A stretch of DNA of 64,000 nucleotides, from assembly GCF_965641715.1 (NCBI RefSeq), contig NZ_OZ282453.1, one strand, 5' to 3'. Made by a program: the position numbers and the translations under genes. Of this stretch, positions 7,865 to 8,020 are shown piece after piece (position 1 is the stretch's first letter; the number at the start of each line of letters is the position of its first letter). The notes under the pieces were generated by a model, which was not told the DNA's origin, made no database searches, and saw only the letters and a program-made list of their open reading frames with translations. The DNA is from Escherichia coli (GTDB lineage Bacteria; Pseudomonadota; Gammaproteobacteria; Enterobacterales; Enterobacteriaceae).

Positions 7865-8020
7865 TTTAACGGTGTTCTACGTGAATAAAGCAAAGTTAAT
7901 ACCCACACCAAAAATTATTTTTCACGTAGCTCACGCTTAACAGAGAAAATACATATATATCAAAGGCTTGGTTAAAAATGATTAAAATACACTAAGCCTT
8001 TGAAATCAAAGGAGAATTTA

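Follow-up and report, generated by a model that had tools for sequence, protein, structure and literature searches.

A 53-bp palindromic element common to an Escherichia coli island, phage P1 and other phages: a candidate control site ahead of a Dit-like tail gene

Between a tape-measure protein (TMP) gene and a Dit-like 'baseplate' gene in a chromosomal island of Escherichia coli lie two inverted repeats, H1 and H2, the first of which is, as judged by its sequence, a copy of a 53-bp palindromic element that is found in this island, in phage P1 and in many other phages. This palindrome family is widespread, is located before gene starts and is apparently undescribed. Our tentative preference, held with less than even confidence, is that H1 is a control site read by a protein as duplex DNA rather than a stem formed in RNA; that a protein binds, that its target is DNA rather than RNA and that the site controls expression are all points that we infer. 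The initial annotation took H1 for a local hairpin, and two points escaped it: H1 is a cassette that recurs and has a widespread family, and H2 is an addition found with only one allele of the Dit-like gene.

The inverted repeats and their setting

The DNA analysed (the window, a stretch of 64 kb) is chromosomal E. coli sequence; strain APEC O18 has the same sequence over positions 7850-8035, and a related stretch is carried by 464 of 5,426 complete E. coli genomes. Upstream of the repeats is the TMP gene (5735..7864, + strand, stop codon TGA at 7862-7864), which encodes a protein of 709 aa with a match to Pfam TMP_3 (3.2e-20). The protein is homologous to gp67 of phage Felix O1, and both the phage N-terminus and the C-terminal LLSSSYPEEE have been kept. 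The downstream neighbour, the Dit-like gene (8021..8794, + strand; 257 aa; Pfam Dit_like, 5.2e-20), encodes a protein with 78% amino acid identity to Felix O1 gp68, and positions 8036-8554 have about 92% nucleotide identity to Felixounavirus phages. As the two genes overlap as TAATG both in Felix O1 and in the sibling island L028, the 156-nt spacer of the window (7865-8020) represents an insertion between normally coupled genes. The possibility that this spacer was copied from the helper phage was considered and rejected: nothing similar was found in nt 1-50000 of the 86,155 nt of Felix O1, blastn gave no match in 50,697 phage records, and the Felix O1 genes overlap without a spacer.

The 9-bp perfect repeat of the initial annotation is confirmed, the left arm of H1, CTACGTGAA (7877-7885), being the exact complement of the right arm, TTCACGTAG (7921-7929), with 35 nt between them. 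The palindrome extends outward to 75 bp (7866..7940, TTAACGGTGTT-CTACGTGAA-N35-TTCACGTAG-CTCACGCTTAA; predicted fold 4+3+9 bp). This extension is imperfect, with 23-nt arms (7866-7888 and 7918-7940) that are 78% complementary, and neither the palindrome nor its parts are assigned to a strand. The left half-site is identical in every island copy that was collected without constraining the left arm, and the right half-site has the variants TTTACGTAG, TTCATGTAG and TTTACGTAC. The interior (7886..7920) is A/T-rich and contains an ACCCAC motif and an A-tract; its length of 35 nt is constant, and its sequence is variable and mosaic. The G+C content of H1 is 35%, and a covariance model recognized it (88.8 bits) as the sole copy in the 64-kb window. 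Between the two repeats, the word CTTAACAGAG is present as previously noted, at 7936-7945 (+ strand). Sibling cassettes run straight into the RBS (cttaacagaggtgaaatATG in L009b/L012b and cttaaagaggtgaaatATG in L004b), and the word therefore looks like a vestige of that cassette-RBS junction, left as the tail of the cassette. Predicted folding is stronger than in shuffled sequences for the whole region (-32.6 kcal/mol, z -3.9), for H1 (75 nt, -15.3 kcal/mol, z -3.0) and for H2 (50 nt, -16.7 kcal/mol, z -6.2), with none of 200 shuffles as good in any of the three cases. By our own estimate, about a dozen 9-bp perfect repeats with a loop of at most 60 nt occur by chance in 64 kb. A lone repeat of this kind is not rare, so the case for H1 beyond chance rests on its conservation.

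H2 (7957..8006, + strand) consists of the arms ATATCAAAGGCTTGGT and ACTAAGCCTTTGAAAT around an 18-nt loop. The second stem reported earlier, at 7961..8001, is real, but its length of 8 bp was too short: the arms are 16 nt long (7957-7972 and 7991-8006, 88% complementary), and the predicted stem is 13 bp (7960-7972/7991-8003). The predicted folding energy is -16.7 kcal/mol on the + strand and -13.8 kcal/mol on the - strand, the + strand fold being 2.9 kcal/mol more stable. The position of 8006 given for the RBS was slightly off; the Shine-Dalgarno (SD) sequence of the Dit-like gene, AAAGGAG, is found at 8008-8014 and the ATG at 8021. This initiation region (AAATCAAAGGAGAATTTAATGATT, 8003..8026, + strand) is partly duplicated inside H2: a direct repeat (D1) connects 7957-7966 with 8003-8012, the RBS word ATCAAAGG is present at 7959-7966 and 8005-8012, and the start word AATGATT at 7977-7983 and 8020-8026. 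These duplicated words suggest that H2 arose when part of the initiation region was duplicated and came to pair with a complementary segment.

Among Dit-gene alleles, H2 precedes only those that start with ATGATTT; before ATGTTTGAC alleles it is missing, and the cassette directly meets the RBS. The 27 unique variants of H2, 21 of them aligned, are 97% identical and contain no double changes; the frequent variants are compatible with G.U or A-U pairing, and the rare ones break pairs. A mini-ORF in the loop (MIKIH, 7978-7995) was rejected as a conserved feature, its ATG being lost in L014-type variants. Predicted pairing of the loop with the start region (7973-7986/8017-8030) involves A-U pairs only, is shortened in other alleles and is largely a by-product of the near-palindromic AATGATT word. 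H2 appears to be a locally derived 5'-UTR stem-loop, separate from H1 and located 3 nt upstream of the SD, and it would likely act by keeping CCUUUGA paired away from the SD and/or by stabilizing the mRNA.

A palindrome family in phages and sibling islands

A search of viral contigs with the arms alone showed that the 53-bp unit recurs in unrelated phages. The relaxed family pattern, CTACGYRAA-N35/36-TTYRCGTAG, matches at least 120 viral contigs, and 69 of the 72 unique matches among those listed are 53 bp long. When the arms were kept exact and the spacer was left free at 20-50 nt, 13 of 15 matches had a spacer of 35-36 nt. The scrambled-arm pattern used as a control was a poor one, as it matched parS pairs and one conserved coding sequence, and the real and control patterns were therefore compared by match quality (length, flank and inner complementarity) rather than by counts; flank and inner complementarity were higher in the real matches. 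For 88 of 121 unique copies, just one of the two sides has a qualifying ORF start no more than 130 nt away, and the distance to its ATG is usually 11-44 nt. H1 in the window has the exact arms and the 35-nt spacer of the family, but the ATG follows 91 nt after the arm instead of at ~11-44 nt because H2 intervenes.

In phage P1, the family member spans nt 119-173 upstream of cra-cre, and cra starts 35 nt after the element. The annotated P3cre -10 sequence TAAAAT (124-129) straddles the junction between the left arm and the interior, the -35 sequence (104-109, with Dam sites) lies just upstream, and the spacer between the -35 and -10 of this overlapping promoter is 14 bp. The palindrome itself carries no annotation in the P1 record. 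Other members precede Cre-like integrase genes by 33 nt in another phage group and further integrase genes by 18-19 nt; one is followed after 22 nt by an ORF of 487 aa, itself downstream of an adaptor gene, and one adjoins a small-terminase gene. Rfam 15 gave no match at E<=1 in positions 1-11000 of the window and, at E<=5, none to the element as it occurs in 11 phage loci, and literature searches on the motif sequence found nothing relevant.

Within E. coli, matches to H1 are confined to the island, at no more than six places per genome. Sibling islands carry the unit GTG..CTACGTGAA-N35-TTYAYGTAG-CTCACSCTTAA twice, each copy almost abutting an RBS; copy 1 is located after the terminator upstream of the TMP gene and copy 2 between the TMP and Dit-like genes. 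Those sibling copies that are not followed by H2 end 24-30 nt before the ATG. The window holds only the TMP/Dit cassette, without the TMP-upstream copy, and L028 is without the TMP/Dit copy. In BLAST comparisons with other islands, the aligned stretch sets in precisely with the left arm (query 28 = 7877). The cassette interiors are chimeric, being put together from a small number of left and right halves, and flanks, interior halves and Dit alleles were seen in every combination. The H1 arms are intact in distant islands in which the neighbouring 236-aa protein is only 25-41% identical. For retrieval from species-representative genomes, the alignment of this 236-aa protein was too divergent, and a search of such genomes with a Dit-like alignment returned one locus, in E. 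albertii.

A third copy of the cassette is present near a small recombinase gene in some islands, and a decayed remnant is found at that position in others. The gene in question, encoding a small serine recombinase, lies on opposite strands in the left ends of L022/L028 and L004/L030 with the order of neighbouring genes unchanged, and the adjoining palindrome copy changes orientation as well.

How the palindrome may act

In the reading that we tentatively prefer, H1 would be a conserved 53-bp cis-element with a lineage-specific palindromic extension, recognized by a symmetric factor, through which expression of the adjacent downstream gene would be controlled. Recognition would most probably involve duplex DNA, with two 9-bp half-sites, 44 bp apart from centre to centre, bracketing an A/T-rich segment where transcription could start, as at P1 P3cre. 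By its location between the TMP and Dit-like genes, the cassette would uncouple the two and give the Dit-like gene its own control point, and the second copy in sibling islands would serve as an equivalent control point for the TMP gene. A duplex site fits better than an mRNA stem because of the fixed spacer, the invertible interior, the independent half-sites, the lack of a clear strand bias and the promoter inside the P1 element. The interior is inverted relative to the gene in L004c and L022c, and that of P1 is inverted relative to L243, meaning that only the symmetric parts can matter. Modulation of the gene at 8021 and protein binding were the two options offered by the initial annotation. 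The first gains from position, which argues for a cis role in expression: in most of the copies that could be oriented, a start codon follows after 11-44 nt, and in P1 the element overlaps with an annotated promoter. The family data, with independent half-sites, a fixed 35-nt spacer and a flipping interior, lean toward the second.

The statistics that bear on the mechanism are based on 44 non-redundant family members. Their core is nearly invariant except for arm positions 6 and 7 (consensus CTACG[T>C][G>A]AA). Position 6 is occupied by the pairs TA (24 copies), TG (10), CA (9) and CG (1), and position 7 by GC (24), GT (10), AC (6) and AT (4), a distribution which fits two arms that vary independently rather than covarying for pairing. 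On the doubtful side of possible is a reading in which the mRNA of the TMP and Dit-like genes carries both repeats as functional stem-loops. H1 would be a hairpin recognized by a protein or an RNase and setting the two cistrons apart, whether as a site of processing, as a barrier to 3'-exonucleases or as an operator for translation, and H2 would be a 5'-UTR hairpin setting mRNA stability or SD accessibility. Against it, C.A and A.C combinations on the coding strand are about as common as wobbles at the two variable arm positions across the family, and C-G is almost absent. The same reading draws on the good folding of both repeats on the + strand, where H2 has its 2.9 kcal/mol advantage, on the G.U or A-U compatibility of the frequent H2 variants, and on the distance of 11-44 nt to the start codons, which suits a 5'-UTR element. 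It also draws on the flanks, where six to eight positions change in concert as a palindrome and each of them shows several types of pair; changes on both sides number 123, compared with 85 +/- 7.5 in shuffles (0 of 500), and the covariation score is 0.241 versus at most 0.150 in slid-partner controls. This significant family-wide covariation is a nucleic-acid stem signature and counts against the duplex reading, under which the specificity of the protein would need to co-evolve, as does the location of the window copy in an apparent operon, where it would be transcribed anyway into a stable predicted hairpin.

Selection for an RNA hairpin should lead to compensatory changes and to a large excess of G.U over A.C. 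In gene-oriented copies, the G.U and A.C counts are 24 and 27 in the flanks, 13 and 10 at inner positions, and 17 and 7 in the core, where island copies contribute 7 and 0; G.U is moderately favoured in the core and balanced by A.C elsewhere. Arm changes in distant islands mostly keep coding-strand pairing, through C to U changes opposite G and a G-C to A-U double change in L026, and both L028 copies have two wobbles in their arms; at positions -2/+2 of H1, the island copies have T.T, T-A, A-T and C-G. Exceptions to pairing among the island copies are L030b and L022a, which have A.C mismatches, and the TTTACGTAC variant. The RNA reading is further weakened by a covariation test restricted to 24 island copies, with 84.8% paired versus 85.0% in shuffles, and by the absence of double changes in H2 at 97% identity. 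A strict 35-nt 'loop' and an invertible interior are unexpected for a simple hairpin, and with the P1 promoter -10 inside the element, the resulting transcript would lack the left arm. It is the flank covariation and the island-level wobble pattern that keep an RNA role alive.

Less probable again is that H1 is a recombination linker or semi-selfish palindromic cassette, akin to the promoter-stem-loop cassettes of T4-type phages or to REP/MITE-like repeats, which would be retained because a conserved stretch between genes allows their alleles to shuffle and which would have little or no regulatory role. Such a cassette would agree with the polymorphic presence at both sites, the TMP-upstream copy being absent from the window and the TMP/Dit copy from L028, with the chimeric interiors and the free combination of flanks, interiors and Dit alleles, with the homology breakpoints at the cassette edges, and with the two to three copies per island in either orientation, including a decayed third copy at the left end. 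However, there is no evident target-site duplication and no discrete boundary, as the palindrome continues into lineage-specific flanks, nor was a transposase found to accompany the cassette; HMMs gave no support for the 'transposase' label that the 236-aa protein carries. The interiors have diverged completely across the family, even in G+C content, while the arms and the spacing have been held, which points to long-term constraint rather than recent spread, and the placement before start codons is consistent in unrelated phages. We rejected intrinsic termination, either for the TMP gene (+ strand) or for recombinase read-through (- strand), and regard it as very improbable. The stems are stable and come directly after the TMP stop codon, and the - strand beyond H2 is moderately U-rich, but a terminator scan of positions 1-11000 found no site in 7865-8020, neither stem is followed by a U-tract on the + strand, and the loops of 35 and 18 nt compare with an expected 3-8 nt. 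Genuine terminators in the same group of islands look canonical, an example being GGGGAGAG...CCCTTTTT ahead of the TMP gene, and H1 is located after them.

For the preferred duplex site, a binding protein was sought by tblastn searches of the islands with Cra and other P1-type proteins encoded nearby, which gave no match, and by all-vs-all clustering of the ORFs within +/-4 kb of 43 loci, which gave no family common to island and non-island members. No sigma-70-like promoter was predicted in 7865-8020, and the P1-type -35 geometry is absent from the island copies; by analogy with P1, transcription could conceivably start inside the cassette. Inspection by hand for sigma-32-, sigma-E- and T7-like promoters and for IHF, CRP, NarL and CpxR motifs produced partial and inconsistent resemblances, and none is claimed. 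A wider scheme, which we consider unlikely, is that the palindrome is the recognition site of a widely shared host- or phage-encoded factor that, in P1-like phage-plasmids, in other phages and in the island alike, gates the expression of genes for recombinases, packaging and tails. In the island, it would then be the switch by which a Felix O1-type infection turns on the TMP- and gp68-like copies to hijack or poison tail assembly.

If H1 is a true control site, it would be a conserved regulatory signal that has gone without annotation even in P1, directly ahead of cre, and a common signal would link P1-like phage-plasmids to a chromosomal island with copies of lytic-phage tail genes. The identity of the reader would inform how cre-type recombinases are restrained and how the tail-gene copies of the island are timed. 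If the palindrome is only structural or recombinational, it would still account for the mosaic boundaries between TMP and Dit-like alleles.

Comparison with known elements and features of the island

The closest counterpart of H1 is the palindrome of the P1 cre region (AF234172 nt 116-176, between P3cre/pR1 and cra), which has the arms CTACGTAAA ... TTCGCGTAG, a 35-nt spacer, an ATCTG/CAGAT inner repeat and GCG/CGC flanks in common with it, and a start codon 35 nt downstream. The two differ in that the left arm of the P1 copy carries the annotated -10, with Dam sites just upstream, whereas H1 has no predicted promoter and sits between two tail genes. Promoter-early stem-loop (PeSL) cassettes of T4-type phages are short, repeated intergenic stem-loops that precede genes and occur at mosaic boundaries, and they carry a clear sigma-70 early promoter. 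H1 is likewise a repeated intergenic cassette that precedes genes and coincides with mosaic boundaries, but it has a fixed 35-nt spacer, is common to unrelated phage groups and lacks a predicted promoter in the window, where no -35/-10 pair with a 16-18 bp spacer is present in 7865-8020. REP/BIME and Correia repeats are co-transcribed intergenic palindromes that can form mRNA hairpins, and a chromosome carries tens to hundreds of them; REPs, which are rich in G+C, have a GTAG/CTAC tetranucleotide at the end, and in Correia elements TA duplications and an IHF site are present. H1 resembles them as an intergenic palindrome able to form an mRNA hairpin, with CTAC/GTAG ends as in REP units. It departs from REP/BIME elements in its single copy per 64 kb, its G+C content and its restriction to the island and phages, with E. 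coli matches in the island only. It departs from MITE- or Correia-like elements in that no consistent direct repeat was seen on reading the flanks, into which the palindrome continues in a lineage-specific manner.

Each arm of H1, taken with the adjoining inner sequence, spells GTGAAAT / ATTTCAC, which matches exactly the ParB Box A heptamer (ATTTCAC) of P1 parS and is comparable to chromosomal parS (TGTTTCACGTGAAACA), and P1 parS also has two arms around a fixed, bendable spacer. No Box B or IHF consensus was seen in H1 by eye, no ParB was detected among the island proteins, and the palindrome copy of P1 itself deviates from Box A in both arms. We regard the similarity between H1 and parS as a resemblance in sequence only. 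The attP sites of large serine recombinases are imperfect palindromes of ~50 bp with a fixed length, in which the outer 8-9 bp are best conserved. H1 is similar in being a fixed-length palindrome of ~50 bp in an island that encodes a large serine recombinase, but it differs from attP in having two to three copies per island beside RBSs and in having family members that adjoin tyrosine recombinase genes. H1 was rejected as an att site of the serine recombinase of the island, as the wrbA junctions (core GTGCTTT..A) share no sequence with it.

The island is ~11 kb long, is inserted in the first codons of wrbA and ends with the large serine recombinase gene (8814-10457, minus strand). It occupies positions 1-10520 of the window, and its left end lies beyond the window (cf. 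L001 3900-14900). Sibling islands occupy yecE, mdtG and a cls-side site, and island-related sequence is also present in Salmonella and E. albertii. The island supplies a replacement start for wrbA (window 10458-10540 and L001 3900-3960), so that wrbA stays intact as a 201-aa ORF. Its cargo comprises the homologues of Felix O1 gp67 and gp68, a Dam-HTH methylase, an HNH endonuclease, island-specific proteins and the large serine recombinase, without capsid or packaging genes. In its make-up, the island resembles a satellite of the PLE kind or a defence element that would interfere with the tails of Felixounavirus, and it is a candidate for either role toward Felix O1-type phages; no paper describing a Felix O1 satellite or this island was found in the literature. 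Contig L024 (1-9969) has the order Dit-like gene, serine recombinase, island left-end genes and TMP, i.e., a circular or tandem island junction, which may be evidence of an excised form of the island.

Only 19 nt (8794-8814), without a terminator, separate the Dit-like gene from the serine recombinase gene that converges on it, so collision or overlap of the two transcripts is expected. GU169904.1, a 147-kb record labelled Staphylococcus phage SA1, contains a gp68 gene of the Felix O1 type at 91% identity and looks like a chimeric or contaminated assembly. The leader of the 236-aa gene (window 4141-4711) contains a strong sigma-70-like promoter (4212-4240, 11/12 with TG), a terminator-like hairpin (4474-4496) and two interleaved long inverted repeats (4605-4626/4661-4682 and 4631-4653/4689-4711), the second of which covers the RBS and the ATG at 4708; this leader is a candidate attenuator or translational switch. 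The word CTTAACAG is found nine times in the window versus 1.8 expected, with six of the nine in the island and sites including 300-470, 1654, 4672 and 7936. Direct and inverted copies of it are clustered in the non-coding left part and could be iterons or operators. Positions 1426-2300 of the window have no + strand ORF of at least 40 aa where siblings encode a helix-turn-helix protein of 314-327 aa (L002 1638-2579), and divergent promoter-like sites are present at 2187-2251; the helix-turn-helix gene may have been lost or degraded in the island of the window.
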